Shown: positions 1 through 20,000, counted from the first letter of the stretch. The stretch is DNA of 20,000 bases from Psammoneis japonica (GCA_008632985.1 QPGO01000103.1:245718-265717), one strand, 5' to 3'. Made by a program: numbers and translations. The notes: generated from the letters alone by a model not told the origin.

Positions 1-47
1 AAGAAATGCCAGGAGTCACATGTGGACAGGATTCTACAGACATTTTT

Positions 48-79
48 CGTTCTGGGTGGGCATCGCCGGATCCATGTCA
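48..79 (+). repeat. Left terminal inverted repeat of the MULE
   Basis: cgttctgggtgggcatcgccggatccatgtca is the reverse complement of 3580-3611 apart from one CpG/TpG difference. Confidence 0.85.
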
Positions 80-281
80 GCATTCCTGTCTGTCTGCCCG
101 GCGGAATCAACACCCACAGATGCAAGCAAGAACATGATTTGAATTCAAATGGGTCGCTGCCCTGTCAGTTGGCTGCGGTCAGCATCGCCTGCCCATCTCA
201 TCTGATTTCCAATTGTGTTGTTGCGCTGTCATTCATCTGGGTCCGTCGCTTCAGTTCTTTCAATCTAACAACCATGCGACC

Positions 282-3200
282 ATGTCTGGTGCCCCACTCC
301 CTGTCGACGTTGTAGATGATGGCTTGCATGATGACAATGATGACAATGACAAGAACGCAGGAACAGCTTTCAATGACAGTGAGTCTCACAATGATGCAAT
401 TGTGCAAGAAGCAGAGCCACCACCTGTTGATGTGTGCCATGCATTGGACATCCTTGACACTGTCTTTTGTGGTCTTGACGATGATTGGTGCACTCCCATG
501 ATGTTTCCCGTCAATGTCGTCCATTCGAAAGAGGTTCCACCGTCTCTTTTCATGGATGCCAACATCACCGAGTGCCTGGGCAAAGATGGGCCTGGCAGTG
601 TGCTTCATTGACATGTGCACGTCTGCTTTGACACAACGAGGTGTCCCCCACTGCCCGCTGCTGCAAAGCCATTCTCCAAGGATGACACGAGTTGCGCAGC
701 TTTGTTGCAGGACTTCCACCAATGTGCTGCAAGCAATGGGTTCGAGGCAATTTCCAATGGCAATGGCCGCATTGTCTGTTCCTGCTTTCTGACGCATTGT
801 CATAAACCCGAACAACGTGACCCAACAGCTCCGGCCACCTCCTGTCGGAAAACTTCCCTTCATGATGATCGCCGTCGGAACAATCGCAAACAAGGCCACA
901 AGAATCATCCTCGACGACAGCAGACATCCAAGGCACCAAATGTTGAGGACACATGTGGTTGGAACATTTGCATCCAAGCCAATGCTTTTGGCTGTTTCTT
1001 CAAGTGTGGCACTGGGTGTGGCTTTCATTGCAACCACCACAAACGACTTCCTGATGAAATCCAGCAGAAGATTCGTCACCTAAATTCATCCACCACATTG
1101 TCCATGAAGCGCATGAGAAAGGGACGCTTGGGGGCTGGCCATGTGCGCAAACACATTCTCGCCAACAAGGATCACTTTCTGTCCAGGTCGCAGGTTCGTC
1201 GCGTCATGCAAAAGGCGGATCAGGAACAGTTGACCCCATTCTCACCACCCTCCGAAAATGCTGATTTGGATGATGGCATCTTGGAGCTGCAGAAGTTCTT
1301 TCAGAGTCGAGAAGACGTGGAACACTCTGCACTGGCAAGTGGAGCCAATGCTGTGCAGACCCCCACCCAAGAAAGAAACCTGCATTTCCAGTCTTCATTG
1401 CTTTTCAATGAAGCTTGCGTTGATGGAGAAAGGGAGATTCAGAACCTCGAGGAACTTTGTTCCGAGGTTGTTGACCAGTGCAGGCGTGAGAGGGAAGCGG
1501 CGCAGCTTGGTCCTGATGACAACCTGTTCATTGGTGCTGCATGGACACTCAAGGGCGAGAAACGATTGTTTCGCCAAATGCCACATGTGATCAAAGTGGA
1601 CGTAACGTCTCACACAAACAATGAGAAACGGCCTTGCCTGACTTTCTCCACCCGTGCGCCAGATGGGTCTCACTTTGTTTTCCTGCAAATCCATCTTCCA
1701 GATCAAACACAGGGGACGTTTCGGTGGGCATTTCATGTTGCACTGCCCACTCTACTTGATCAAGCATCAATCCAGCAAATCAAGCTTGCGTTGACAGATG
1801 GAGACTCTCAAGAAATCTGCGAGTTGCGCAGTGCCATTCAAGTCTACATGCCCGACGTCTTCCAAGGCCGTTGTGGCTGGCACATTGTGGAAAAGGGATG
1901 GTTGCGTCACTGCCCTGGTGAGAGCTGTGTGTCTCCAGGGCAGAAGCATGAGACCCACAAGCATTTCGTCGCTGCAGTCAAAGCCTGGCTTCATTCATTC
2001 ATGCACCCGGGTGGTTGCGAGAATGAAGATGAACTCAAGGTCTCCAAGTCATTGCTCATCATGTTTCTGCATTCCCCAAGAGTTCTCCAGACATGCGATG
2101 GCAATGAGTCCACTGTGCAGAGAATCATTGCCTTCATCCGAAATGAGGTGTTTGCATGGGAGCGGCATCATGCCTGTCACCTCAAGAAATTCATTCGTCA
2201 CTACGAGGAAGCAAACAATTCAAGTCATGAGGGAACCAACAATGGGATGAAGAACCATTCTGCCCCTGTGCTGCCCTCACAGAATTTAGCCACCAGCGCC
2301 ATCAACTTCGCCATGCAATCCGACGTGAAGGTTGCCGAGTCACACACTGAAAGCAACGGCATGGCCACAACAAAATGTCTCTGGTCCACCTGAGAAGGTG
2401 CCAAGGAGTGCAAGAGACTGCACACCTCGTCACGAGAAGACAAAGCACATCCTGGCAAGGGGACCGGCAACGACAGGGAGGTCGTGGGTGGACTCAGTTC
2501 TACTTCTGCACGTGATGCAGTCCTTGAGCCACTGGCACAAGCCGCCGAGGTTCTGTCAAACCAGCAAGTGGTGGAGAAGTCAACAGGGAGGTCATGGGTG
2601 GACTCGGTTCTACTTCTACATGCGATGCAGTCCTCGAGCCACCAGCACGAGCCGCCGAGCATTCTGTCACACCAGCAAGTGGTGGAGAAGTCAACAGGGA
2701 GGTTGTGGGTGGACTCGGCTCTACTTCTACATGCGATGTAGTCCTCGAGCCACCAGCATGAGCCGTCGAGCGTTCTGTCACACCAGCAAGTGGTGGAGAA
2801 GTCAACAGGGAGGTCGTGGGTTGACTGGGTTCCACTTCTGCACGCGATGCAGTCCTCGAGCCACCAGCACGAGCCGCCGAGCGTTCCATCACACCAGCAA
2901 GTGGTGGAGAAGTCAACAGGGAGGTCGTGGGTGGACTCGGTTCTACAATCGGCGGAAGTGGAACTCGGTGTGGTGACTCCGCCAGGCGAAAATGGTTTGG
3001 AGTGAAAAAAGAACCGAAAACAGCAGAGAGACTGCTTTTGACACCGGCAAAAAAACTTGACACAACCGAATTGGTTTGTGGAGTGCTCTCTCTCTTGGCA
3101 CGATGACGGCGACGGTGCTTCCTCTTGCCCTGACTCTTCAAACAGGAGCGTTCGTGGCGTTTGCGGTGGCAACGCAAGCTGTTGCTGCAAGACTCCAATC

Positions 3201-3398
3201 CGTCTTGATTTCCTCTTTTCGGCTGGGAAAAACAACAAGCACAGTGTGAGAGACTGCAAAATGATGGCACAAAAGGGGAGAAGCACAAAAGGGGAGAACA
3301 AGCCATGCAGCAATGCTTGCGGGGTTGGGTGGCTTCATCGTTGGATGAACAACGTCGTTTGCAAAACAACATTGTGCGTGCGATGTGTGCAAAAGTGA
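282..3398 (+). pseudogene. MULE transposase pseudogene (N-terminal WRKY/FAR1-like Zn-finger candidate, DDE core, 37-aa repeats, C-terminal Cys-rich tail)
   Basis: ATG at 282 is in frame with ORFs 213..611 and 615..2393, which are interrupted by in-frame TGA at 609-611 and 2391-2393. MULE motifs: first Asp in KVDVTSHTN (~1600), second Asp in LTDGD (~1795-1805), CGWH = CxxH (~1872-1883) and catalytic Glu in NSSHEGTN (~2229). CGWNI...HCNHH resembles the WRKY/GCM1-type DNA-binding domain. Frameshifts follow 2393, and the Cys-rich tail is in ORF 3057..3398. Confidence 0.8.
2473..2946 (+). repeat. 111-bp (37-codon) tandem repeat, ~4.3 copies, inside the transposase
   Basis: Units beginning acagggaggt start at 2473, 2583, 2694, 2805 and 2916 (spacings 110, 111, 111, 111). 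Unit 1 lacks one base. The consensus is open in one frame (REVVGGLGSTS.RD.VLEPPARAAERS.TPASGGEVN). Confidence 0.95.
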
Positions 3399-3579
3399 AG
3401 TGAGGAGATGGAGGAATTCAAATTTTCTTCCAAATGCCGGTCATTGAGAATTTCGAACAATGACTTTGCAACGGTTTTTACGATCATTCCCACACGAGGG
3501 TAAACACAAAGAGGATTGGCCTGTTCGCGCTGAAGTTGTCAACAAGCAAACTGACAACAACAGGCTCACTTGACGCACG

Positions 3580-3611
3580 TGACGTGGATCCGGCGATGCC
3601 CACCCAGAACG
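3580..3611 (-). repeat. Right terminal inverted repeat of the MULE
   Basis: tgacgtggatccggcgatgcccacccagaacg reverse-complements to 48-79 with 1 mismatch. Confidence 0.85.
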
Positions 3612-4148
3612 GCACATGGCACTCCAAGTGGAGTCATTTGATCAAGAACCCACATCACAACATTTGGGTGGTTTGCCGGGTGTGGGTCAGGTGGAACTCT
3701 CTTTGGAGGCTGCTTGATTTCTGTTGCACTGCAAATGTCATTTGCTGTGATTGCAAATGTCCCCAATGTCCACAGGCTCAAGTTCAAGAAATGCACAGGC
3801 TGGCATGAAGGGCCGCCACGTGAGTCCCATTTTGTGAATGTGGGTTGGCCTGCGCGTCTTTTTGCTGTCTTTTCTACGTGTGTTTAAGTGCTGAAACTAC
3901 GTGCAATCTGAGAATTTCATTTCTACCTCCCAACAGGAATCACTCGGCTCTCAGAGTCATTGCGTAGAAGTTGTGTAGAAGAGCACCAGAAATGTTTGTT
4001 GTCAGTCTGTCCACCCGTCCGTGTTCGAATGCCAACTCCTCGGGAAATCAATTGAGGTGTCATCTGATCAAGGGTGCTGCTCTTCACCATCTAACACCCT
4101 TGGTCAGATGACATTTCAATTGAGTTCCCGAAAAGTCAGTGGCCCCAA

Positions 4149-4923
4149 TCACCCTCTCGTATGACATTGTGTACATTTCCACACAATTTGGCATTTTTCC
4201 TTGTGCAAAATGCCGGTTGTGACTCTTGTGACATTTTCGAATGATTCCTGTTGAACACTGAAGCGAGAGGTGTTTCTCTTGCCATGACAACTGTGCCGGC
4301 AGCTGAGTCGTCTGAAGAACATGATGGTTTCAAAGAACACGATGACATTGTGAATTGCAACTCTAGATGCAATGTCGCCAATTGCGGTGGCAGTTGAAAA
4401 AAACAATGCCGCTGCAATCGCAATCACCACAAAACAGTTTGTTCCATTCTGAAGCGGCACCCACCTTGTTGCATGACTTCACGGCAGATTGTGCAATGTG
4501 CAAGCATCAACAGATTCAACAAGGGAATCACACAAACCATGCGCCGACAAGTCCATCCGGAATGACTCAATTTGAATGTGGGCTTGAGATTCGGGAGCAT
4601 CGGGATCCGATTCAAATTTCCACTGAACAACAGTGCCTTTCATTGTTGTTGGACTTTCTGTGAATTGCAACCAAGCCCTTGGATCCAGACCCCTTCTGAA
4701 TTGCATCCAATGTCCCACTTTTGGCTGTTCTGCCTCGAAAGCCGCCACTCTGGAGCACACGATGAATGTCTCCTGCATTTGGCCATCAGCCTTTTTCCAT
4801 CAGAGCTCACCAAGACGTGTGCTGTCAAAAGAATGAGAGCATTGTTGACTCTCTTTTTAACAGGACAGCCACTTTTTTCTTTCCTGTGGTGCTGCTCTTT
4901 TTCTTGCTGCTCGTAGATGCCAT
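4149..4923 (-). pseudogene. Decayed small ORF of unknown function (Lys-rich N-terminus, hydrophobic C-terminal segment)
   Basis: MASTSSKKKSSTTGKKK... starts at 4923. After a frameshift near 4825 one frame continues through ORFs 4479..4778 and 4149..4460, interrupted only by TGA stops (~4800, ~4479). It is nearly Tyr-free and His/Cys-rich. No family recognised. Confidence 0.4.
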
Positions 4924-5339
4924 GGCTGCACGAACTACGATGACGGTTGGATGATGTTGGTGTGAGAAAATTGGAAACTCAAATGACGAGCACTGAATCA
5001 CGTAGAAACACACGCACCTTGTCAACGCTTGGCAAGGTCGGCCATGGCAAAAAAGAGATGGCATTTTCACAACAATGGAAGGCGGGGCATCGGTCGCCGA
5101 TGGCATGTTCGAGCCTTTAGAGCATCAAAAGGGACCAATGCAATCATCGGCTTCCGATGCCCCACCTTCCATTGTGCTCAAAATCGCGACGGCGTGATGA
5201 CGCCATTTTGCCGTGCTGTGTTGCGGTGAAAAACACTTGAAGGGTCACGAAAATCCACCATCTGACGGACAGATGATGGACCAAACATTTGCGAAAAAGG
5301 TTGCAAATCGGCACACACAAAATCATTTTAGGATGTGGT

Positions 5340-8300
5340 TGTCAATCATTTTTCTGTTGAGATGACATGCCAGCCTGTCTCTTGAACTTGAGCCTGTGCA
5401 ATGTCAACCTCAGTCCATTGAGAGCAGCCTCAGTGTCAGGCCTTGCACTTGAGCTCCTCAGGAATGGAGGACCTTGTCTTTGTCTTCAATGTTGGGTTGG
5501 TGAAGGAGTTGACAGAGAGGCGTTGCACTTTTGTGGCAGAAAGGACTGCAGCTGATCCATTGAAAAGTCCTCCAACTCCTCATGGATGTGTGGCATGTCC
5601 AAACTTCTAGCACAAATGGGTTGAAATTTCAATTTGAACAAGTGCAAGCTTCCAGAGGCACAATGAAGATGGAGGAATGACTCCTGATGAGAAAACCTTG
5701 CCTTTTGCAAAAATTCTTGGAGAAACTTGCCTTGCAAAGTCGTTGAACTTGCACCCATTAAAGTCATTTCATTTGCATGTGTTGACTGATCAAGTCAGTA
5801 AAATCTTCAGTGGATGTTGGCCAAAACATGATGTGGTTGGAGAGTTTGGTTGTTGCTGTGGTTTTGTTGTGCAGTTGATGGAGACATTGTGCAGTTGCAG
5901 CTGCAATGGATTGACAGACAGGCCTTGTTGAGTTGTGGTTGCGCCTTGCCATGCCAGGTGAAGCTGGTGGCCTCTCCAAGTGGCTCTGGGCAGAGCCCAG
6001 CACAAGCAAAAAAGTTTTTCACAACAACAACCAATGGCAACAGTGGCGCCAATGCATTGGCAAGAGTTTTGAGTTTTGAGCTCATTTTGTTGGGTTCCAG
6101 ATGGGGAAGGATGATGGCAAACAATCAAAAGCAGTGCACTCATTTGAAAACCACACATGTTTGTGCACACAAAGCCAACAAACACACGCCAATGTTGTTG
6201 CACCCCACAACACATTGTGTGCATGCTTCACTCTGTTGTTGATTTTCAATTTCAGTTTCAAGTGATCCAGCACACAACAAAAAAAGTGATTTTGCATGAA
6301 CGGCGCAACAAAGGTTGATCACCAACATGGGGGCACAAAGCAAATTGCCATCTTTTGCTCCAAGAGTCCCTCCATTTTGATGCTGTCCTTGCCGCCTTCT
6401 GTCATCCCTGTCTGCCTTGCCAAAGCCATTGTTGAGCTCCTTCTCCGGCAAGTCTTCCATGTGATCCTTGTCTTTGGCTGAGTCAAAAGAAATGTGCAAA
6501 AATGTCTTGGGTTGATGTGCTGCTTCTTTGACTCACTTGATTTTGTGGCCATTTGCATCAGCAGGATTCTCCAGGCATGTCTGTCTCTTTTGTTCCTTGG
6601 CCTGCTTTTGCAATCATTGCCACTGCAGAGCAATCTGTGCTGTTTGTTCAGCCTGGGGATGCAAGCCCCAATGCATGAAAGTTGACAAAATCCTTGGCCA
6701 GTGTTGTTGCATGTGCCTTGCCAATGCTGCAGAGTTCATCAGGCAGACAGGCTCCAAACCCATTGTGGCAGAGAGGAGCTCTGACAGCTGGCTTCTTTCA
6801 CAGAATCATGAACACCTTTTCACAAAAGCCCTTGGCAATCATGGGTTTTATTTGGCTCCATGTCCAACCAAATTCTCCTGGCAGATTGATGGTCATTGAC
6901 TGGTGGGGCAATCTTTCTCTGGAGGGCACACATGAGCCACTTGCAGTGGGAGGAGAAATGCCAAAGTTTTCCATTTTCCAGTCATCATCCACATTGGCAA
7001 TGAACCCCACCTTGTGACTTAGACTGTGACGGCACTCATGGAGCACATCTGTGGCACAATCAAGTTGAAAATGACCCCACCTTGTTGGCTGTCATTTGTG
7101 ACAGAAAGCATCAACTCAGCTGTGCACAAAACAACAACAAGAGTGGCATTTCCAGCTGCAGCTGCAATTGTCTGCCAGAGAAGCAGTTTGTTGCTGGTGG
7201 CCTTGGGAGGCACTGCCTGCCAGCGGGTCTGCAGCGGTGTTCCTGCAGCTGCAGCACCAGGCTGCCAGGCAACTGCCAGCATGCCCTTGTCAGCAACAGC
7301 TCAGGCTGCATTGACACCAGCCAGGCAGTGTTGCTTGCACAAAATCCAATGCTTGCCTCCTTTGCCTTGACCATGGGGCTGATGACTTTTTGTCAGAGGG
7401 CTTGGAAACCCTCAACAGCTTTTGGGGCATGCCCATTTTGTGTTTGGCTGCGATCCGATTTCCATGTTGCAACATGGCTGACAAATTCGGACAGCTGCAC
7501 ACATGGCACCCCTCTTGGTCCAGCTTTGTCAAGACAGGTCCTCTCTGCTTGCCCAAGGAATGATTGCATTTGCCAAATCTTGGGATCAGTTTTTTTTTAT
7601 TGGAGAGTGGACAACCATCCAAGTTGCACTTGGTGGCAACAAAGAGACCAGCACACCAATGCAATTGTGCTCTCTGTCAGTTTGCGCATTTCTTCTGAGT
7701 GCAGCCATGATTTGCTCACACTCCTTCTCTTGCCAGAGCTCATGTTGTGACACATGCCAACCCCCTTGACAATGGACCCACACCAGCTGTGCACAAAGCA
7801 CTCTGGTCACACAAGAAATGGCTTTGCTTCCAAGTCAAAAAGTGCATTTTGAGCATTGCTTTGTGCAACTTTTTGCCCTTTTCACATCCAACACTGTTTG
7901 AAAGAATCTTTCCACAAAATCCCAGGCACCTGAAATGAAAGAAGGCATGGTCAATGCAAGAAAACCTGTGGCACATGTCAGGTCAACCCACTTTTTCATT
8001 GATGGCACATTCTGGACATCCAGAAAGGCTCTGCATGAGCCAAGTTTTTTTCTGCCAGCACTTCCAAGTGCCACATTTTGACATTGCCCACTTCCTTGTT
8101 GCTGATCAACCACAAAAAAAAAGCAAATGCAAAACAAAGTCATGTCTGGCAACTTGCAAGGTTTTGCCAGAAGCAACCCATGCACCACCCAAAAAGCCAA
8201 CAAAGGCCCCTTTGTGGCTGACTTTCTCATTTTCACAGTCTGCACACAGAAGAGCAAGAGCTGCTTTTTCTGCTTCTGCATGATCACAAGGTAACTCAGG

Positions 8301-9780
8301 AGATGAAGTCAAGCAAGATTTTCACACAAGATCAACACAGAGTCAGGTTTGTGTCTGTGCTTGCCCCGGCCGTCTGCTTTGCCAAAGCAACCAACCACAG
8401 GTTGCTTTCCTTCCATCATCAAACAACTCCAATTCCAGCCTTTGTCTTTCCAGCATCTGTGCTCCACTTCCTGAGCAAAATTGCACAAGTCAAGCCAAAT
8501 TGATTGTGTGGCATGTGGGTGACTGCATGCCCTCATGAGAATTTTGTGACTGAAAAGGTCCTTGGCATGTGGTTTTGAGCTGTTTGAACAACTCATCCAA
8601 CTTTCACTGCACCCACTGCTGGCATTTGTTCTCACATTCTGAATTCACAAAACACTCACACTCTGCCCACCTTCAAACAAGACAAAGTGGACTCACACAA
8701 TCACTGCCTCATTGAACATTTCCAATTTTGTGAGCACATGGGTGCTTTGATGCAGAGCTCTTGTGCCATCTCAAATCCTCTTTGAGACATTTCCAAGTTG
8801 CTCTCAATTTTCCCCTCCAACCAATTGCAGGTCAACAAGTCCTGCTGAACACAAATTTGTGCTCTGTGTCAGTCTCAATTTGTCCATTTTCAGCACATTT
8901 GACCTTGCTGTCATGTCTGGATCTTTGTGCTTGTTGCAGCCAACAATGATTTTTTCTTGAATTTGCCTCAGATCCTGACACCCAACAAGCAGATGAGCAA
9001 CCCCTGCTTTTTTGCTGACTCTGCTGAAATCTGAGATTGGCCACTTTTGACCTCAAATCCCCGGGAAATGATTGGCGCATGGTGCCAGAGATGTGCACAT
9101 CACACCATCAGACAACACAGCACTCTTGCCAATGTCAAAGTTGCCAGAAATGGCTTGTCTGGGCACTGTGGGTGTCTCAGATGGAAAGTTGCAGGAGAGC
9201 CTTTGAGTGTTGGCTGGTTGATCATTTGCCATCTTCTGCAGTTTTTGTGACCAAGTCATTTTGCTGCATCTTTGGCAAGGTCATCCAGCCAAGCTGAGCA
9301 AAAGCAGCAGCCAGTGTTGCTCTGGTCTCTTGGAGGTGTCTTCAATGTTGAGTGCAGATGGCCCCAGCTTCCAGCTTGCTCCTGCATGGTTCTTGGCATG
9401 CTGCAGCAATGAGCTGTCTAGAGCGCAGCATGCCAACTTCTTGTTGGAACCTTGTCCAAGCCCATCATCCCCAACACCCATGAGATTGTTGCCTTTGGTC
9501 TTTGCTCAGTGTCTGGCTCACTCTGTTGCCATGATCACAGTGCTGCACCAGCTGGCGCTGCAAGGAGTGCTTGTTGTGAGTGTTGCATGCTGCAGAAATG
9601 CTGGGGGTGGGAAGTTCCTTTCTCAGCTGCTGAAATGAAGAGCTTGGGGGTGGTGCTGTTTGTGTTCAGCCATTCTCCAAAACTGACCAGTTTGGTCTGT
9701 GCAAAGTGTCCCAATGCATTTGTTCTGGTCTGCTCTGAAGACACTTTTGTTCTTGTGATCCTCATCTTTTCTGGAAATCT
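5340..9780. other. Heavily hypermutated domain (TpA and CpG both almost absent); unidentifiable coding/TE relics
   Basis: By eye only about ten TA dinucleotides and few CG in ~4.4 kb, with strong TG/CA excess. Many overlapping short C/H/Q/W-rich ORFs occur in all frames. Confidence 0.8.
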
Positions 9781-10770
9781 GTTGACCTTCTAGAGCACAA
9801 CTTGGAGAATTGGTTCATGGAGAAGGCCACAGTCTTTGTAAAATTTGGCATTGCTGCTGGGGACCAGCAAGATGACCCCTGTTCTTTTTCTTCCTCAGTG
9901 GTTGGTTGCCCCTCTGCTCTCATTTGAGAAGATCAATGTGGGGCCCAGATGGCGCCAATGGACTTCCAACAAGGCCCGTGCCAGCCAGTGCCAACACAAA
10001 GACATTTTTTGACTTCACAATTGTCTTGCCCCACTTGAAATGAGCACCATGCATGAGACATCACCTCTCCTCATTGATTGAGCATGAGAAACATCTCTTT
10101 TGACTCCTGCAAGGTGTGTGACAAAATGGAAAGTGATTTCCTGCAAGCTCTTCATCTGGCTTCCACTGGTTGTCAGCACAAATTCAGAGCCAACAGGCGT
10201 GTTCAAGAGTTTCTGAGATTTCCTTCAAGCTCTTCATCTGGCTTCCACTGGTTGTCAGCACAAATGCACAACCAACAGGCATTTTCATGATGCACCTGCA
10301 ATTCAGCGGCGTGGTGTTCAACAGCAAGCACAAAGGAAGTCACCACCCCCCACCAATGGGAAACAAATGTGCCAGGTTTGCGTTTGACTGAACTGACCAC
10401 CACCAGCTCAGTCCATGAACAGGACAGCTCCTTGGGAATGATTTTCTTCAATGCCAGCTCATTCATGTGATGCTGGTTCACATCAAACCAAAAAAATTGA
10501 CTGCTCTCGTTCTTCAAAAGCCCCACTTTGCCCAGCTGCTTTGTGCAGTCCCGAAGTTGGCACAGCTGACAGAGCATCATGACACATCCCCAGTTGCTTG
10601 GAATGTCCTGAGGTTGGGGTGCATTTGTTGCTGAAAGTGACAGCGTAATCCTTGACTTCTCGCCAAGGTGCCGGCATCGCTTGATCGGACAAGATCATTG
10701 TGTTGGCGACAACGCGAAAGGCGAGCGCAGCTCCGCGCCTCACGAGTTCCGAGAGTCGAATGAATCATTG
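9780..10770 (-). pseudogene. Decayed gene with a HET/TIR-like module of the FVSHWW...WxCAxxNQW...RxWCxFE type
   Basis: ORF 10203..10580 reads LCQL...NQHHMNEL..KKIIP..SCSWTELV...PGTFVSHWWG...EHH...ACWLCICADNQWK..EEL..NL. In another frame downstream it reads LQESKEMFLMLN..GEVMSHAWCSF (~10030-10110). The motif order matches my recollection of an expanded uncharacterised algal/protist family. Boundaries are approximate. Confidence 0.55.
10135..10282. repeat. Local direct duplication with 82-bp period
   Basis: caagctcttcatctggcttccactggttgtcagcacaaat occurs identically at 10144-10183 and 10226-10265, with similar flanks (gatttcct on the left, ccaacaggc on the right). Confidence 0.9.
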
Positions 10771-10927
10771 GATCTAATGCAGACAGATACTTTACTGTAG
10801 TTTGACAACTCTCATGACAGCTGCGTCTCCTCTCTAAACTAGAGCATCCACTCAATCAAACCATTCTATTTCATTAGAAAGATCAACAAAATACAATCGG
10901 GGAAACCCCAAGCTGCAGAATCAGCAA

Positions 10928-12199
10928 TTACGAAGTGCTGGCGTAAGCCATGTGCGCCCGGTGCGTCTCTTGCTCTAGTTTCCGCCCCATGAGTGTTTTG
11001 ACAGCCTCCTCGGGTGTCAAGGTTTGGTGAATAAGAGCATGGACGACTCGAAAGATTGGTAGTTCCAGTCCACACATGTCGGCGTAGGCAACGGCAACAT
11101 CGGCGGTAGGAACTCCTTCCACAGTGTAGTCCTTTTCAATGTCAGCCACCGCTTCTCCTTTGATGAGACGTTGTCCACACCGCTGGTTGCGACTCTGTGA
11201 GGAAAAGCACGTTAACATCAAGTCTCCAATGCCCGACAAACCATCAATTGTGCTAGGATTACCTCCCATGGCGATGCATAAGTCGCACAGCTCTCGACTG
11301 GCGCGAGTGACACAAGCCGACAACGTGTTTGTTCCAAAACCCATACCAGCCACCATTCCAGCACCGACGGCTAGAGGATTTTTAAGAGCACCACCAAGCT
11401 GTACACCAATTGGATCTTGTGATGTGTATACCCGAAATGAATTGGAGTTGCTCATGATCTTTTGCATCTTGACCGCGAGAAATAGCTGATCCGATGCTAC
11501 AACGACTGCGGTTGGAAATCCTTTTACAACTTCCTCGGCAAAGCTAGGGCCGCTGAGGAAAGCCAAAGGCTGCTGTGCTCTATCCAATGCGTCAAGAATA
11601 GCATGCCCAATCAACTGCTTAGTAGGCAGATAGAGGCCCTTGGCGGTACTGCAGAGTAGCACGTCCGGTGGGATCAAATCCCGGTGCTCCTTGATCCAAG
11701 AGGGCGTCTTTTGGCACGGTAAAGCCAGAATCGCCACGACTCCCGGAGATTGAAATTCCTCCTTCAAGTCGTTTGTCGAACAAATACCACGAATAGTACC
11801 CGACAACTCGTTGAATTTGTATGTTGATAGATACTTTGAATTGTATCCTTCTTGATTCATGGTTTCACACTGTTTTGCATCACGCATAAACATGACCACC
11901 TCGTGACCATTGTTGGCTGCCGTATAAGCCATGGCTGTTCCATAGCTTCCTGCTCCAATAACGAGAACTTTTTGTTTGCTTCCGTTTTTGTGTACAATCT
12001 CCATCACTGGACCCAAAGCGGCACGTTGCCCCTGCTTGAGGTGCTTCTGTACGCGACTGCAGGCATGACGGAGACGTTCACGATCGCGAAGTCTCAGCAA
12101 GTACGTTGCACATCCCACACCTCCTGCAAAGGCGATAGAGACGCTCAAACCCAGTACAATATGAAAACTGTGGTTGTTTGTAGTGGATGACATCAACAT
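10928..12199 (-). CDS. gpsA: NAD(P)H-dependent glycerol-3-phosphate dehydrogenase (GpsA-type) with N-terminal hydrophobic extension
   Basis: 423-aa intact ORF. Motifs: Rossmann VLVIGAGSYGTA, STAKGL, LSGPSFAEEV, GGALKN, GLSGIGDLMLTCFSSQSRN, VEGVPT. Normal dinucleotide composition. Confidence 0.95.
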   Translation of the reverse strand: MLMSSTTNNHSFHIVLGLSVSIAFAGGVGCATYLLRLRDRERLRHACSRVQKHLKQGQRAALGPVMEIVHKNGSKQKVLVIGAGSYGTAMAYTAANNGHEVVMFMRDAKQCETMNQEGYNSKYLSTYKFNELSGTIRGICSTNDLKEEFQSPGVVAILALPCQKTPSWIKEHRDLIPPDVLLCSTAKGLYLPTKQLIGHAILDALDRAQQPLAFLSGPSFAEEVVKGFPTAVVVASDQLFLAVKMQKIMSNSNSFRVYTSQDPIGVQLGGALKNPLAVGAGMVAGMGFGTNTLSACVTRASRELCDLCIAMGGNPSTIDGLSGIGDLMLTCFSSQSRNQRCGQRLIKGEAVADIEKDYTVEGVPTADVAVAYADMCGLELPIFRVVHALIHQTLTPEEAVKTLMGRKLEQETHRAHMAYASTS

Positions 12200-12512
12200 T
12201 GTACCGATAGTCTACTAGCAACGTCGAGGAGAAGCATCACAATGAGGAAATGATGATTTTCGAAAATCGCAAATCGCAAAAAATCAAAATCTGACATGGG
12301 GTTCGCACGTGACGTCATATTTTAACAAAGGGATAGACAGACGGACGTTGAGCGCAAATCACGAATAAATCGACCATGATGAATAATCCGGAGACGAAAC
12401 AAGAAACAATCGCTTTTTCTGGGTTATTTTCTTTAAGCCCGTCACTTCGGTGTTGTCAGGGTTTCTGGCTGAGCGATTTTGTGACGAGTGACGCGATAAA
12501 TAAACAGCAAGA
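12200..12512. promoter_or_regulatory. Probable bidirectional promoter between head-to-head GPDH and AAA ATPase genes
   Basis: 313 bp between divergent start codons. Overlapping CACGTG (12306-12311) and TGACGTCA (12310-12317) palindromes. Confidence 0.45.
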
Positions 12513-14139
12513 ATGGAATCATCGATTTTTCCGCCCAACACAGACGAGAAGCAGCTACCCTTGATCAAGAGCTTGTCGTCGTCGTCGTCGTCGTCAAGCT
12601 CGGGCAGTGACAGTACCGGGAGCTATGAGTCCGCAAACGAAGAAGAATGGAGACGAAAAAAGTGGACCGAACTCGTGATCTCCTGGTTACGGAAAGGGGA
12701 TGAAACACAACACTCTGAAAAAGAAAAGGAACGACGTAAAAAGATGCTTGCCCTTGCCGCAGTTACAACCGTATTATTGATTTGGTTGAGGAAAAAACGA
12801 AAAGGCGGCTTACTACAAACAATATTACCCGCGGTACTAAGCAGTGTAACAAAATCTAAGTCGGTGAATGAGTATCCTGGACGAAATGCGAAGGAAGCAC
12901 CGCTTTCACTGCTTTTGACGGCAGCCAAAAAGGGCCAGATTCTTCGTGCTCGCTTAATGGGTTCGGCCGTAGCCTTCCAGATCCAAGATGGTACATGGAG
13001 GCGTGCGACTGTACCAAAACAGAATCCATCCTTTCAATCCACACTGGTGGAAACGCTTGCTCAAGGAGGGTGTTTGGACGTGGCGGCTGTTCCAGAATCA
13101 ATTTGGTCTCGACTCGCAACTCCCGCTATTGCTGCCCTCCCGTTTGTCTATTTGGCTCTTCTTTACAAAATGATGCGCAATCTACATGACAATACCGACC
13201 CTGTCCGAACCCATGGCAGGGATGCATCGGCTCGTGTCACGTTTCAGGACGTTGCGGGGTTGGACTCGGTCGTGATGGAAGTATCCGAGGTTGTCAGCTA
13301 TCTGGACAACCCCACTGCCTATCATGGAGTGGGAGCTCGTGCTCCACGGGGTATTCTCTTGTATGGACCACCAGGATCAGGCAAGACATTACTGGCCCGT
13401 GCAGTGGCTGGAGAAGCTCAATGTGAGGTATTCATGGCATGCAGCGGAAGTGACTTTGTGGAGAGCTACGTGGGACGAGGAGCTGCCCGCATACGTTCCC
13501 TGTTTGACCGGGCACGTGCTCAAGCGAGGGGTAACGATAAGAATGGTTGGTTAGACTTTCCATGGCGATTCTCTTCAAAGACGACAAGACTGTCCCCAGT
13601 GGTAGAAAGCCGTCTGCCGTTGTATTTATGGATGAAATCGATGCTATAGCCAAGTCAAGATCTGGAGTTGGGGATTGGCCAGCAACGATGAACGGGATCA
13701 TACTCTTAATCAGCTCTTGACGGAAATCGATGGCTTTGCATCCAACGAAGATATCACACTGATTTTCATTGCGGCCACAAACCGCGCCGATGTGCTGGAT
13801 CCCGCAATCCTGCGACGATTTGATCGACGTGTCCATGTGGGGTATCCTGACCAAGAAGGACGGCGTGCCATTCTGGAAATACACGTACGAAACATTCACC
13901 ATGGACACTGTTTAGATCTTGATCAGTTGGCGTCTGATCGAATGACAGCGGGATTCTCGGGCGCTGATCTTCGCAATGTCGTAAATGAAGCTGCGCTCTT
14001 AGCTGTTCGAGAGAAAAGCGCAATCGTGCAACAAAGTCATTTGCTGCATGCGGCACGACGAGTCAAGCAAATGAAAACAAATCTCAGTCACAACGATACG
14101 GATGTTATCCTTTCGAATCTCCCGCCGGGATTGCGATGA
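12513..14139 (+). CDS. FtsH-like membrane AAA+ ATPase lacking the M41 protease domain; split over three frames in this sequence
   Basis: Two hydrophobic segments, [33 protein letters not shown] (Walker A) and [21 protein letters not shown] in ORF 12513..13649. Walker [14 protein letters not shown] is at ~13616-13654 in a second frame. [38 protein letters not shown] and [18 protein letters not shown] are in ORF 13675..14139. The stop comes right after the AAA lid, with no HExxH. Confidence 0.85.
12575..12595 (+). repeat. (TCG)n microsatellite encoding poly-Ser
   Basis: gtcgtcgtcgtcgtcgtcgtc in the N-terminal part of the AAA ATPase ORF. Confidence 0.8.
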
Positions 14140-14218
14140 CAAGCGACGACAGTCTTCTGGCGAAAGTACATGAACAATTTCTGCCGAACAATACGATGAC
14201 AATCTATGAAAATTAACG

Positions 14219-15808
14219 TTATGACCGACTCTTGCTTCTACGATTACTGCTCCTTTTGCGACTTCCACTTCTATAAGAGCTTCTGCCATTGGTAGCCTTA
14301 GATTCACCATCATTTGACCATCCGTTGCTTCCTCGGCCCCGTGTCCTCCTGTAGCTACGCGGTGGGCTTGAAGTTCGTCCATTTTCTCCTTGACCCCACG
14401 ATTTGCGTCGGCCATTCGGTCGACCACCTCTACTAGGCGGACTGCGACTGTTGCTTCTTGTAAATCGATGCGGACTCCAAGACCGTTCCCGATGATAGCC
14501 ATTTTCTCTTCGATGTGGCGAACGGCTACGGCTTCTTGAACGGTCGCGTCGACCGTTCTCTCTGCCCCATTGAGGGGACGAGGATCGATCATGGGGTGGA
14601 TCATCGTCGTAAAGGAATCCATTTCTGACATACCCCGCGGAATCTCCACCGATAGAGACCCCATTCTGATGGAAACGCTTCAACGGTAGATTCATGTATC
14701 GTCCTTGATATCGTCGTACGCCTCTACCCTTGTACACGGTTCCTCCCGGACTTGTCCGTCCATTGGTTTGAGAGGATGAAGCGTCGGCTTGAATCAGTGG
14801 GTTGGACATTGCTTTATCCTGTTCTGAAACATTGTCGTTCTTCTTCTCTTCATCTTCCACGGGATCTGCTTGGCTGCTGTGAATAGAATGACACTCAACA
14901 CTCTCAGCTAGAGATCCGCCACAATCATCTGTATCCACATGTGCAACAACATCACTACTTGCCACCGATCGCTGAGAACCAAAGGACCGGACCGATCCAG
15001 CACGAGATGAGGACCCTCCAAAAGACCGTTCTCCTGGTTGGTGCTGCTGAAGAAGGAGGGACCTTGAAAGTGGCGGCCCCATGTCATTCATGGGGATGGC
15101 CAATGTAGGCCTTAGGGTCGGAGAAGCACGAGCGTTTGGTAGTGGCATGAGCGGTACCTGCTGTGGTCGGGGATGCATGTTTCCAGCGGATAAACCAAGC
15201 GAGGGAGCAAACTCCACTGAACGAGGTGTACCAATACTGCCACTGTTGGATCGTCGAAGACTACTGCCTCCTCCAGGGTTCAGGGTTCCACCCAGGGATG
15301 ATATTCTCTCTGATGTAGGCGTCTGAGGCACATTCATTTCCGCAGATAAGACGCTTGCTACATCGATATCGTCCACGACACTACCAGAGCACACAGTCGC
15401 AATGTCACTCTTGGCCGCTTCACTCGTGGCATAAGACATTGCTGTAGGAAACCGTGTTTCAGAGTTCATAATGTGAGAAGCTCGGAAAAACGAACGATGA
15501 GCGTAGCGTTCTTCAGATCCGGTAGAACCAACCGAACGCATTGACGAAGCGTGTCCCGTAGCACTGTTTGGAGCACCATCACTGAGTGCACCAGATGAAT
15601 GGTATCCCGAGTTGTCGCTCGTGTAATGATGGGACGATAAGGATCGAGAATGGTCCAGAGTCAACGTTTCTGGAGGCCGTTCGTTGCTTCTCCATTTTGG
15701 CGGGGGAGAGGAACGAGGCTCCGATGCACTATCATCATGATGATCTCGTTCGACCCATTCTCGTGCTGGTGATGATCTTTGACCATCATTGGACAGGGGC
15801 TTGTCCAT
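14219..15808 (-). CDS. Uncharacterised Ser-rich, probably disordered protein with C-terminal RS/RG-rich tail
   Basis: 529-aa intact ORF with normal composition. One non-low-complexity island, GRTSPGGTVYKGRGVRRYQGRYMNLPLKRFHQNG, is followed by RSRSRSRSP-type repeats. Convergent with the AAA gene, 79 bp apart. Confidence 0.8.
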   Translation of the reverse strand: MDKPLSNDGQRSSPAREWVERDHHDDSASEPRSSPPPKWRSNERPPETLTLDHSRSLSSHHYTSDNSGYHSSGALSDGAPNSATGHASSMRSVGSTGSEERYAHRSFFRASHIMNSETRFPTAMSYATSEAAKSDIATVCSGSVVDDIDVASVLSAEMNVPQTPTSERISSLGGTLNPGGGSSLRRSNSGSIGTPRSVEFAPSLGLSAGNMHPRPQQVPLMPLPNARASPTLRPTLAIPMNDMGPPLSRSLLLQQHQPGERSFGGSSSRAGSVRSFGSQRSVASSDVVAHVDTDDCGGSLAESVECHSIHSSQADPVEDEEKKNDNVSEQDKAMSNPLIQADASSSQTNGRTSPGGTVYKGRGVRRYQGRYMNLPLKRFHQNGVSIGGDSAGYVRNGFLYDDDPPHDRSSSPQWGRENGRRDRSRSRSRSPHRRENGYHRERSWSPHRFTRSNSRSPPSRGGRPNGRRKSWGQGENGRTSSPPRSYRRTRGRGSNGWSNDGESKATNGRSSYRSGSRKRSSNRRSKSRS

Positions 15809-16329
15809 TACAAAACGGCAACAGAGTTATGGGAGAAACAACAGTGTTCAGAAGTCGGAAGATCTTTCGTTTCTTAGGAACTTCTAAACGCTCAGGCGTT
15901 TCAAGCTCAAAATTTTACCGCTTTTCCCCTCCGCTGTCTTCCAGCTTTGGCTGTAGGGCTTAACGCTTTGCAATTAAAAAAGGAAGATCAACGACAGTTG
16001 TCATTTAAATCTATCTATTCACAGAGCAACAACAACTATGAGCCATGAGATGGGGGGAACTCCATGTAGTACGGTAACATACACTCCCAACTGGGAGGTC
16101 TCTGGGTAGCCTAACATAGTGAAACTCCAACCTACCTGGGGCCTGGGCGGGTGCAGAACTCGCAGACCACGAAGACATGTGTTTCCCTACTTAGGACTTG
16201 AAAACGTGATGACGAACCCTTTCTAATTAAATAATGCCGTCGTCCTACGTCATTGGTGTCCTTAACCCTTTTTAGACATGCGCACTTGAATAATGACGTC
16301 AACAACCATTTCCATTAATTGTGAAACGT

Positions 16330-18760
16330 CGCATTGACGTCGGGGGTTCTGAAATCCGCCACACAACACAAAATGATGACGAACAAGGTTTGTTGAACAA
16401 CAGCAGGTGGTGAGTCGCAACACCACATGTCCACCACCAGCAGTGTGTTGCATGACACCAGCCACAACAGGAGAGCAGGTGGCCAAAGAATGCAAGCAAC
16501 ATCATTTGTTCAGCACTTCCACCGCACTTGGAAGAGCCATCTCTTTGTCTGACAGCAAGAAAGAAAAAGAGACGCTCGGTGAGAACGCCACTGCTGCTGC
16601 GTGGCTGCGCAGACCCTGCTTGCACGCATCACTTTCTTGTTGCAAGTGTGCCACACAACCAAAAGCTGCTGCCTGCACCATGCCAGCTATGGTGAGAGCT
16701 TTGCAGACCAGCAAAAGACAAAAAATGTGTGGGTGGTGGCAGCTGCCACTTTTGTTGTCTGTGTGGAAGCACCCCACAACTTTTTGACAAAAGATTGAAA
16801 AACACAGCAGACTTTAATCAGCAGAGAGATTTAGCATTGTGGGGTGAGCTGCCATTGCCGCAAATGGCAAAGCACCCTTTGGGCTGCCTGATTGTTGGGA
16901 ATGGTGTGGCGCAGCATTGTGCGCCAAGTGTGCACTCTCTCCCAATGCTTGCTTCTGGAGCAGTGTGCAGCGACTCATGAGCAACTTGACCACATTGACA
17001 GCACATTTGGTGCCTGGCTCCTTGTTGTTGTCAAGTGCACTGTTCAACAAAAATTGCGCAAGTTTCTTGGGTGTGTGGGCGCAGCTGCAGCAATTTCAGA
17101 ATTGTTGGAGCACCAGTGCAGCAAGCCAGGCAACACCTCCATCCTCCAAAGTCCAAAACAGCTGTGCACATGTGGTCAACAGTCAATTGTGTGAGATCTT
17201 GGTGCCAACAAAACCACTTCTTTCTTGAGACCTTGCAAGACAGAACACACAGCTCTTGATGGTGGCCAGCACTCCTCCTTCATTGTGGAGCAACCCAAGA
17301 GAGTCTGTTGCAGCAGCAGCCAGTCATCTGCATGTCTGGGTCACCTGTCTTTGTTGCTCTTAGAGCCCCTTGGGATGGCACTGATGTGCTGAGTGCCCCA
17401 CAACTTGTTGACTTGCTTGACTTGCACAAGCCGCCCAGCAGCCGCAGCATTTGTGCTGGCAGCTCAGCTGAGACCTTGCAGCAGTTGCTTGCCTGGAGCC
17501 CCCTTTTGCTGATTTTGGGAGCTGGGGCTGCTTGTGATGGTGTGAAGCCTCCTGCCTGGCCAGTGCAGCAGCGTTTTTGCAGCAGGAGACTCTTGCAGCA
17601 TGCTGGAGCCTTGAGAGCCCACAAAGGACTCCAGACCTGTGAACAAAAGGCCACATGATGATGTGCCCTCTTGGCAGTGCCCTGGTGGTGAGTGGTCACA
17701 TTGGAGGCTTCTCCAGCAGCCTGACAAGGCCATGACCCTTCCTTGCAAGGTGAAACCAGAGGGTTTGCTCTTGAGATCCAAGTCACCAAGAAGCAGCATT
17801 CCTTGACTGCTTTGCTCATCTCAGCAGCCCTTGCAACAATGTGCTGCTTGCAGTGTGCTGACAACCAAAAGGAAAAATGACAGGATTTCAGGGCTGCCAG
17901 CTGGGCAAGTCTTCACAGCCAAGGAGCAGATGGCATCTCAAGCTGCTGGCACATGAGTCTTTGTTGTGATCAAACAACGCAGGGCAAGAGGAACTTTCTT
18001 GCTTTGTTTGTCCCTTTCTTCTGGCACCTCCATTGCATGGACCAGCCTCTCTCTTCCTTTTGACCAAGGAGTGCATGCCAGCAAAGGCAAGGGAGCATTT
18101 TAAGGCCTTGGCCTTCTTGCTCAAGTCTCGCAGATTATTTTGGCTCTGGCACTTGACACTGGGTGCCTGCCAAGCTTGTTGAGCAAGGGAAGGGTGCCCA
18201 AGAGAGAGGAAGAGCAATGCGTGGAAAGACCATGCAAGAAAGCCTGCACCTGACAACAACAGCTTCAACAAAATGACATTGCTTGGAGAACTTGGCACCC
18301 TGGTGCACCAGACAACAAGGTGGAGGCAGTGGAGAAGGAGGAGTGCAAGGAACTGTGGCGTGAGCATCTTGATCAAACTTGGGTGGCAAGAGGACAGCCA
18401 CACAAGCTGCAGGAGGAGCCAGAGGGCCAGGAGGGGACGGAGGTGCCGGTGAGCTGCAACGTGCAAAGCAATGGTGTTCAGTGCACAGCACTGAGATGCT
18501 GATGGTCCACCAACCTCCAGGCAACTGCAAATTCCAGCAGCCAAGAGCAGAGCATGGAGCACTGCTGGGGAGGCAAAGGGGCAAGACAAGGCTTGCCTGT
18601 GCAAGCTTGTTGCCAAGAATGACACAGGTGAGTGTGACCTCACTGATGAGGCCTTTCTTTGATCCCAGCAGTGATCACCCAGTGCCCATGGAGGTGAATG
18701 CGAAACTGTTGGAGCAAGGAGTGGTGCTGTTTGGGTCCAAGAAACACAGCAAGAACTCAC
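16330..18760. other. Second hypermutated domain (TpA-free, CpG-poor) with unidentifiable coding relics
   Basis: Only about six TA dinucleotides seen (16688, 16815, 16832, 17361, 18101, 18136), with TG/CA excess and overlapping C/H/Q-rich ORFs. Confidence 0.8.
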
Positions 18761-19107
18761 TGTAACAAGCGCAAGCACAAAGCAATGGAAGTACAAAGTG
18801 GCGAGGGAGAACAAGAGGCCAACGTGCAATCTAATCATCTGCAGTAGACACCACTTTACTGTGTTCTGTGCAGTTCTTTGTACATTGCACTTTGTGTGCT
18901 TTCAATGGCGTGCACAGCCTCTTTCAATGGAAACAACAAATGTCCTCAAACCAAACGCAGTTCACCAACTAACCTACATTGTAGTGCTGAATAAAATTTG
19001 TTCAGCAACACAACTAAAACTGGTTGACGCACCACACCCCTCCACTCGTTGCTCTCTCACTTGCTTTTCTCTGTCCCTTGCTGCTCCTTTTTCCCAACAC
19101 CCTCCGA

Positions 19108-19518
19108 TCACCCTTCTGCCCCGCCTCCCCACTCCTCCACCGCTTTGGGTTTCTTTCTTTTCCGAGATCCGTTGCGCTTTTTCTTTTGCTTCTTCTTTTT
19201 GTTAGACTTGGGCGTGGCCCAGCATGGATGCATAATCAAGCCGTCCATTGCCGTTCCATCGAGGTCCTCCATGGCCGCCAAGGCGTCTTCGTGCCACTGA
19301 AAAGTCACAAAGGCAAATCCGCGATTTTGTCCATGCTCATTGAGGGGGATGACAACATCCTTTACTGGGCCCCTGCCCTGCATTGTGTGGCGCACGCTAT
19401 GGTGGGTGGCTGTGGGGGGAATTGGGAGGAACACTTTCTTGGGGAAGCGAGAAGTGGTCGTTGTGGAGGCGGTAGTGGTAGTGGCGGTGGAGACGGAGTT
19501 GTTGGAGGAGGCGCTCAT
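19108..19518 (-). CDS. Small single-RRM RNA-binding protein (possibly partly mutated or a pseudogene)
   Basis: 136-aa ORF: KKVFL (RNP2-like), GPVKDVVIP...GQNRGFAFVTF...EDALAAMEDLDG (RNP1), then WA and a Lys/Arg-rich tail. No Tyr in the ORF; it ends in TGA. Confidence 0.7.
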   Translation of the reverse strand: MSASSNNSVSTATTTTASTTTTSRFPKKVFLPIPPTATHHSVRHTMQGRGPVKDVVIPLNEHGQNRGFAFVTFQWHEDALAAMEDLDGTAMDGLIMHPCWATPKSNKKKKQKKKRNGSRKRKKPKAVEEWGGGAEG

Positions 19519-20000
19519 GTTGGAGTTCTAGTTTGTCGATGTGTTGGGTCTGTGGATGTTTGAGTTTTGGATTTTGTGAGACCAAAGGGAGGTGCAGAAA
19601 AAAAAGTAGAAATGATCACGATTCATTCACAACACACGTTTGAAGATGAGGTCGCACGTTTGACGTTTGGGTTTGAGTTTGGATTAAGTCGTGCTTGCAA
19701 CACCGCGAGCTCTACCGGTTCCACTGTTCGCTTCTGCCCCCTGCCCAGGCAATTTTTCCTTGTGCTTCTTCTCATGAGCATGCACCAATGCTGTGGTGAC
19801 GTTTACCAACGCCGCACAAACGCAGGCACGATTCGGCTCAAATGCGTTTTGATCTTCACGACTCCGGTTGTTGGGAATCAGACCGGCTACCGTAACAAAC
19901 AGACTCAACGATTGTGCTCTGCTTCCATAAATTGTACACCTTGACATTTTGCTTCTGACCGACAGCGCATGGCTGCTCGAAATGATTGAGTTGATGACAC

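Follow-up and report, generated by a model that had tools for sequence, protein, structure and literature searches.

In mutation-accumulation lines of the chlorarachniophyte alga Bigelowiella natans, A→G or T→C changes made up 230 of the 231 mutations recorded for two integrated viral regions, and the GC-biased changes all fell on TpA (bioRxiv 10.64898/2026.01.13.699255). According to the same preprint, domains of DDE transposases and reverse transcriptases are over-represented in the TpA-poor coding sequences of this alga, and an adenine deamination of the ADAT2 type is proposed as the cause (Mettrop et al., bioRxiv 10.64898/2026.01.13.699255); its main text contains no analysis of bases beyond the TpA itself. 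A full-text literature search returned no account of TpA depletion in diatom transposons, nor of a flank preference for a TpA mutator, this preprint being the only relevant source. Here we describe a 20,000-nt stretch of DNA from the diatom Psammoneis japonica (GCA_008632985.1 QPGO01000103.1:245718-265717), hereafter referred to as the window, with positions counted from its first nucleotide. A Mutator-like (MULE) DNA transposon and older repeat DNA present in it have lost most of their TpA (TA) sites, and the TAs that are left have a non-random sequence context.

The footprint resembles that reported for the integrated giant-virus and virophage DNA of B. natans: the change is TpA→TpG/CpA only, foreign or repeat DNA is hit while genes are spared, and the long-term outcome is a depletion of TpA with a gain of CpA and TpG. 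Over the whole window, the observed/expected ratio was 0.23 for TA, 1.52 for CA and 1.54 for TG. This footprint, together with the replacement of Tyr by His and Cys codons described below, is the indirect trace expected of A:T→G:C changes occurring at TpA only. It is this restriction to TpA, rather than generic GC-biased drift, that agrees with the process measured in B. natans. The two cases differ in the host, here a stramenopile, and in the targets, which are transposons and old repeat DNA. They also differ in extent: the preprint gives a Rho of 0.45 for the nucleocytoplasmic large DNA virus (NCLDV) region of B. natans, whereas the observed/expected ratio for TA fell to ∼0.05–0.1 within the depleted blocks of the window, a far deeper depletion.

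Inspection of the TA counts per 250 bp showed the loss to be restricted to mobile and repeat DNA, the genes of the window being spared. There were 56 TAs across the 13.25 kb of transposon blocks (positions 1–10750 and 16250–18750; 0–6 per 250 bp), compared with 233 across the 6.75 kb of genes (10751–16249 plus 18751–20000; 5–18 per 250 bp in the gene island). The depleted DNA is of two kinds. The block spanning positions 1–5250, termed ‘young’, has largely retained its CpG: it contained 34 TAs where 187 were predicted from genic proportions, and 220 CGs where 304 were predicted, so that >80% of the TAs but only ∼28% of the CGs have been lost. The blocks termed ‘old’ (5251–10750 and 16250–18750) are depleted in both, CG being near zero besides TA in 5251–10750 and 16500–18750. 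Decay of methylated CpG generates the same TG and CA products and has also taken place in these last two regions. As the cause of the TA loss it was nevertheless ruled out by the young block, where TA is scarce and most CpG persists.

Repeat-induced point mutation (RIP) of ascomycete fungi is another known process that hypermutates repeated and mobile DNA, leaves a dinucleotide-specific footprint and riddles transposase genes with missense changes. RIP, however, depends on duplication and converts CpA to TpA by C→T changes, so that TpA rises. In the window TpA was destroyed and CpA/TpG made; both the chemistry and the direction are opposite, and RIP was discarded.

Sequence context of the remaining TA sites

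All 45 TAs present in 1–10500, and the 10 present in 16250–18750, were listed with their context. With four tandem-repeat duplicates removed (2611, 2722, 2728 and 2944), 52 independent sites were considered, 30 in the young block and 22 in the old ones (12 in 5251–10750 and 10 in 16250–18750). An original prediction, made from the DNA sequence alone, had proposed that RTAY sites are hit while YTAR and CTAC/GTAG sites are spared, and had pointed to individual TAs in support. Those located in the MULE were GTAG at 313, CTAC at 1753 and 2202, CTAA at 266 and 1081, TTAG at 2287, GTAA at 1603 and 3501, and TTAC at 3479. Those in the old blocks were CTAG at 5608, 9419 and 9791, TTAA at 5759, 16815 and 18101, and TTAG at 7020 and 16832; GTAT at 4160 and GTAC at 4172 had been given as exceptions. 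All of these were found as described, and the list required three corrections: the site placed at 1855 lies at 1845, that at 17361 is TTAG rather than CTAG, and an ATAA at position 803 of the MULE had been overlooked.

Three backgrounds were used as nulls: (a) the TAs of the genes within the window, 233 in number; (b) the 3,193 TAs of metagenome loci encoding relatives of the MULE, restricted to the 23 of 33 loci with a GC content of at least 0.43; and (c) the TAs that single substitutions could create in the present sequence, transitions being given a weight of 1, 5 or infinity. All 33 metagenome loci had an ordinary TA content (rho 0.47–0.82), and for this reason could serve as a null, but not as replicates of the mutated state. 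When sorted into ten strand-symmetric NTAN classes, the TAs of the depleted DNA differed from the genic ones (chi-square 28.0, 9 df, p = 0.0009, tandem duplicates included). RTAY was found at two of the 52 sites, where 13.2 were expected from the genes (p = 8e-5) and 15.7 from the MULE relatives (p = 5e-6). YTAR was found at 21, the expectations being 9.2 (p = 1e-4) and 8.3 (p = 2e-5), respectively. The scarcity of RTAY and the over-representation of YTAR were thus borne out against both backgrounds.

The sparing of CTAC/GTAG held in the young block, to which 16 of the 30 sites of this block testify (6.3 expected from the genes and 4.2 from the MULE relatives), but not in the old blocks, where none of the 22 sites was of this class (4.6 and 3.1 expected); RTAY was likewise absent from 5251–10750. 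Over all 52 sites, the CTAC/GTAG excess was not significant against the genic null (16 versus 10.9, p = 0.09), since no other class is as common in the genes to begin with (21%). Resampling of the 16 dinucleotides of the 3′ half-site, which involves no chosen class, rejected nulls (a) and (b) in each block (p ≤ 5e-5). Null (c), which represents context-blind regeneration, was rejected as well (p < 1e-5 for the young block, ∼1e-3 for the old ones). The leftover TAs are non-randomly placed and their context bias is real; since they resemble neither the genes, nor the unmutated relatives, nor the product of context-blind back-mutation, some context-dependent process acts on them.

The best descriptors of the leftovers are half-sites, read on both strands, the RTAY/YTAR/CTAC rule being only a first approximation. 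An A preceded the T in 3% of the young half-sites and 11% of the old ones, compared with 21–28% in the backgrounds, while the base two positions before the T was itself T in 55% and 43%, respectively, compared with 24–28%. ATA/TAT was present at seven of the 52 sites, against 40% in the genes and 49% in the MULE relatives. This scarcity, as well as that of RTAY, was observed in the young and old blocks separately. A TCTA/TAGA half-site was carried by 22 of the 52 sites (16 of 30 young and six of 22 old), against 17% in the genes (p = 2e-5) and 11% in the MULE relatives (p = 5e-9). The palindrome TCTAGA, which joins two spared half-sites, occurs at 4362–4367, 9417–9422 and 9789–9794. It therefore represents three of the 52 leftovers in 13.25 kb of depleted DNA, compared with nine occurrences in 76.6 kb of relatives (9 of 3196 TAs, or 0.28%; binomial p = 4e-4) and none among the 233 TAs of the window genes. 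Its density in the depleted DNA was not below that of the unmutated relatives.

The 16 independent CTAC sites were preceded by T (12 sites) or A (four sites), and never by G or C; the spared motif of the young block is thus better written WCTAC/GTAGW. GCTAC and CCTAC were absent from the depleted DNA and occurred 25 times in the genes. In the young block, the base in front of C(CA|TG)C was W in 77 cases and S in 72. Seven of the 16 CTAC sites were CTACG. More generally, 10 of the 30 young TAs abutted a CpG (TACG/CGTA), compared with 73 of the 1029 CA/TG sites of the same block (Fisher p = 4e-5) and with 25 of 207 genic TAs; as a half-site, TACG had a background of 11% in the genes and 10% in the MULE relatives. 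No excess of CpG was detected in the young block at gaps of 1–10 nt from the TA. Only the abutting position was enriched, which rules out patchiness as the origin of the association. Either TCTA or TACG was present at 22 of the 30 young sites.

These contexts differ from those preferred by known adenosine deaminases. To our knowledge, the TadA/ADAT2 family includes the only well-known enzymes engineered or reported to convert A to I in DNA. The substrate of the tRNA adenosine deaminases of this family, and of the adenine base editors engineered from them, is an A that follows U/T, a feature that the changes at TpA share; a paper on amphioxus ADAT2 (PMC10354150) is relevant in this regard. The native editing sites of TadA are described as sharing UACG, or YUACGAA (PMC11472039). 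The comparison with TadA that the prediction had proposed turned out contrary to what had been hoped, as TACG was among the best-spared contexts; a preference like that of wild-type TadA, as given in that source, was therefore rejected. Hyper-editing of repeat-derived double-stranded RNA by ADAR also produces A→G changes. ADAR favours a G on the 3′ side of the edited A. A preference of ADAR for U before the edited A is mentioned in the Discussion of the B. natans preprint (bioRxiv 10.64898/2026.01.13.699255). However, the substrate of ADAR is RNA, and the genome of a cut-and-paste MULE does not pass through an RNA stage; in addition, TAG(A) is spared here. Since known adenosine deaminases favour the very motifs that are spared, TACG and TAG, a specificity like that of TadA or ADAR should not simply be taken for granted.

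The MULE transposon, adjoining repeats and gene island

The MULE occupies positions 49–3611 (plus strand) and was recognized by its terminal inverted repeats (TIRs), a Pfam domain and an empty site; it is depleted in TA and retains CpG. The TIRs are 32 nt long (∼49–80 and 3580–3611) and match at 31 of the 32 positions, the only mismatch being TG versus CG. The stretch was present in one sequencing sample, runs X2 and X3 covering little or none of it. A contig of run X1 from this sample connects position 48 to 3612 through only five other letters, which indicates that an empty MULE site is present in the same sample; its depth was 33, compared with ∼50–60 in the genes. The insertion of the heavily TA-depleted MULE may therefore be polymorphic, or the element may be hemizygous, in which case it was either mutated before moving or mutated quickly after insertion. 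A protein search gave 13 matches, distant relatives only (28–44% identity), and an exact search for the MULE TIR among viral contigs gave none.

The transposase reading frame (615–2393, plus strand, 592 amino acids) contains the Pfam MULE domain PF10551 (E = 3e-7). Tyr makes up 0.3% of its residues, compared with 2.7–4.1% in nine homologues, while His (6.1%) and Cys (4.4%) are both raised. Tyr is found in half or more of the homologues at 13 alignment columns, and the window transposase has kept it at none of these. At five of them it has His (three) or Cys (two), each a single TA→CA or TA→TG step away. As predicted, the only two Tyr codons present in it, at 1845–1847 and 2202–2204, are both cTAC. 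Most homologues are ∼1000 amino acids long, one of them with a SWIM zinc finger in the C-terminal part, and the window frame stops just upstream of a 111-bp tandem array; the element is probably truncated or rearranged.

This tandem array (2473–2946, plus strand) lies inside the MULE and comprises 4.3 units. It contains eight CTAC/GTAG sites at three independent positions, that is, eight of the 20 occurrences of this class when duplicates are counted. A comparison of its units revealed TA in some and CA or TG in others at identical columns.

The region at 3336–5336 is present in many copies, the summed contig depth being 776–3160 compared with ∼50–60 in the genes. It includes hairpin-like inverted repeats at 4035–4136 and 5063–5184 and a perfect 19-nt inverted pair at 3771–3789 and 5380–5398, and many alternative joints were found in its other copies; it looks like a set of nested elements resembling miniature inverted-repeat transposable elements (MITEs). 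CTAC sites cluster at 3875–3977 and 4914–5003. The inverted-repeat arms at 3771–3812 and 5357–5398 pair over ∼40 bp only, and contain no informative TA site. Position 3897 is a C in the window (aCTAc) and a T in each of the 13 other contigs (aTTAc), which indicates that at least one CTAC context was made by a change in the flank and not inherited.

The old blocks yielded no recognizable protein: a Pfam search of the 49 stop-to-stop open reading frames (ORFs) of at least 90 amino acids in these and the flanking blocks gave no match at E ≤ 0.01. At the edge of the depleted block, adjoining the gene island, there is an 82-bp tandem duplication (10135–10287; 1.9 copies, 91% identical). The gene island itself (10751–16249), which served as an internal control, has ∼35 TAs per kb. 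It includes an ORF for glycerol-3-phosphate dehydrogenase (10928–12199, minus strand), an AAA ATPase (12513–13649, plus strand) and a 529-amino acid ORF with no Pfam match (14219–15808, minus strand). The nearest named relatives of the dehydrogenase are from diatoms (Seminavis robusta with 70% identity, followed by Cyclotella and Thalassiosira; further matches reach 80–84%), which identifies the window as diatom nuclear DNA. In the window genes, CTAC/GTAG accounts for 21% of the TAs and TCTA-bearing sites for 17%, compared with 14% and 11% in the MULE relatives of other organisms. The raised shares could be due to codon usage, or the same preference could have left a faint mark throughout the genome.

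Direction and kinetics of TA loss

A comparison of the window with other copies identified at least six places, among the 40 listed of 1171 differing positions, where the window has CA and all other copies have TG, or the reverse. Such double differences are the pattern expected from independent hits on one ancestral TA. The ancestral contexts would be gCTAC, TTAT, GTAC, ATAT, ATAC and TTAC, the single doubly hit CTAC among the listed differences being gCTAC.

The preferred direction of the change was examined by comparing Y-TG-Y (equivalent to R-CA-R on the other strand) with Y-CA-Y (equivalent to R-TG-R). The ratio was 602:348 in the old blocks and 280:275 in the genes (p = 1e-6), with 3193:2934 in the MULE relatives; in the young block it was 297:281, a difference that was not significant. 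The excess in the old blocks suggests that the direction in which TA and/or CpG decays depends on the flanks, the two processes being confounded there. A rule by which an A followed by Y is the target was rejected: it is supported only by the CpG-free blocks, where CpG decay is a confounder, and neither by the young block nor by the five conserved Tyr codons. When CA and TG were compared in 500-bp bins along the window, three of the 40 bins deviated weakly (p ∼0.005–0.012), and no clear strand-coordinated CA/TG tracts were seen.

Survival relative to prediction differed between the blocks. In the young one, 16 of ∼41 CTAC and eight of ∼31 YTAR sites are left; in the old ones, none of ∼56 CTAC and 13 of ∼54 YTAR sites. 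These figures suggest either that the TAs of the old blocks are largely regenerated, or that the protection of CTAC(G) ends as the neighbouring CpG decays; the latter fits the TACG result.

Explanations for the context bias

The best reading of these data, to which we assign about an even chance of being correct, is a TpA mutator sensitive to the flanking bases. Such a mutator would turn TpA into TpG or CpA in transposon-rich DNA through an A:T→G:C change at the A of 5′-TA-3′ on either strand, for which deamination of adenine to inosine would be the most economical chemistry. Its rate would be set by the neighbours of the TA, being highest with a preceding A or a following T (ATA/TAT), and at RTAY generally, and lowest where one side is TCTA (TAGA on the other strand) or where the TA abuts a CpG (TACG); YTAR sites would tend to persist. 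The TAs present today would be survivors in slow contexts plus TAs re-created by ordinary mutation and filtered by the same preference, so that the bias would lie in the destruction of TAs and not in their creation. The prediction that a sequence-specific catalyst, and not generic GC-biased drift, is at work is sustained as regards the context dependence of the process and its restriction to TpA, while its flank rule had to be revised.

Several observations weigh against a flank-sensitive mutator. The sample consists of 52 independent sites from one window, and the classes and their refinements were chosen on these same sites, which makes the p-values optimistic. The TCTA excess replicates weakly in the old blocks (p = 0.25 against the genes, 0.024 against the MULE relatives). 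A single-rate model, with contexts ranked by first-order decay, was ruled out, since CTAC is the best survivor in the young block and absent from the old ones, whereas YTAR survives similarly in both. The tests of direction disagree, with a skew in the old blocks, none in the young one, and conserved Tyr codons changed to Cys in two cases and to His in three. The ∼28% loss of CpG in the young block suggests, under an assumed rate ratio, that ordinary transitions alone might regenerate roughly as many TAs as are present, and survivors cannot be told from regenerated TAs in this window. Finally, the two Tyr codons left in the transposase sit where the homologues have His (6/9) and Phe (8/8), respectively; to judge from this alignment, they may be new TAs and not survivors.

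The position of these two codons also speaks for the strongest alternative, which we nevertheless consider unlikely, namely that most leftovers are new TAs made after the mutator had cleared the region, whether by C→T at CpA or G→A at TpG, or by transversions within A/T runs. Their context would then reflect the sites at which ordinary mutation prefers to act, such as pyrimidine tracts in the case of C→T (TCCA→TCTA, TTCA→TTTA), and not a preference of the mutator. In agreement with this, YYTA is present on at least one strand at 23 of the 30 young sites and 16 of the 22 old ones, compared with 38–45% in the backgrounds, and the TAs of the old blocks are rich in TAAA, TAAT and TTTA, as expected from changes within A/T runs. 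At site 2739, a single tandem unit has TA whereas the three others listed have CA, and the kinetic mismatch between young and old blocks is easier to understand if the TAs of the latter were regenerated. However, given the rejection of context-blind regeneration, this alternative would require a special bias in the creation of TAs. A rule based on pyrimidine tracts fails to account for the absence of CCTAC alongside 16 TCTAC sites (duplicates included) when the precursors CCCAC (21) and TCCAC (29) are similarly numerous, and it leaves the abutment of TA and CpG unexplained. In any case, a mutator that is still active would filter new TAs by its own preference.

It is quite improbable that the bias was inherited from elements originally rich in motifs such as TTCTAC[G/A] near their ends, or kept in cis for transposition, the sites being thus not independent. 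The three array positions that supply eight of the 20 CTAC/GTAG occurrences would suit this explanation, as would the presence of TTCTAC or GTAGAA at 35, 2501, 2617, 3875, 3924, 3965, 3976 and 5003 and the location of the 3875–3977 cluster within a high-copy element. Yet the excess persists once the array is collapsed, the CTAC sites at 3875–5003 lie outside the inverted repeats of the element, and the scarcity of RTAY and the TCTAGA palindromes recur in unrelated old blocks. Moreover, an original abundance of TCTAC followed by >80% loss would predict about ten times more TCCAC plus TCTGC than the 47 found. Chance combined with classes picked on the same data, by which 52 sites and many possible groupings would inevitably give some striking pattern (the weak old-block TCTA result against the genic null being in line with this), is very improbable in view of the class-free half-site tests in each block and the scarcity of RTAY and ATA/TAT in both.

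The flank-sensitive mutator can be extended into a more specific proposal, which is rather doubtful as a whole: the mutator would read at least 6 bp of duplex and interact with cytosine methylation, TCTA/TAGA being refractory, TCTAGA essentially immune, and an abutting methylated CpG (TA-mCG) acting as a block. Protection would be lost once the abutting CpG decays, and CTAC(G) would for that reason be kept in the CpG-retaining block and absent from the CpG-free ones. If true, this would represent a second, sequence-selective layer in a genome defence known from one preprint, and the motif would help to track down the enzyme by biochemical means.

The TpA hypermutation seen here is a diatom case of a process known from a single preprint on an unrelated alga, to which the flank preference adds a new detail; the motif deduced from the leftovers is a first, still rough, fingerprint of the mutating activity. 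With a reproducible flank preference as a biochemical fingerprint, candidate deaminases or other base-modifying enzymes could be assayed in vitro against defined oligonucleotides. Such a preference would also tell whether one and the same activity operates in the diatom and the chlorarachniophyte, and would improve the dating and ‘de-mutation’ of degraded diatom transposons.

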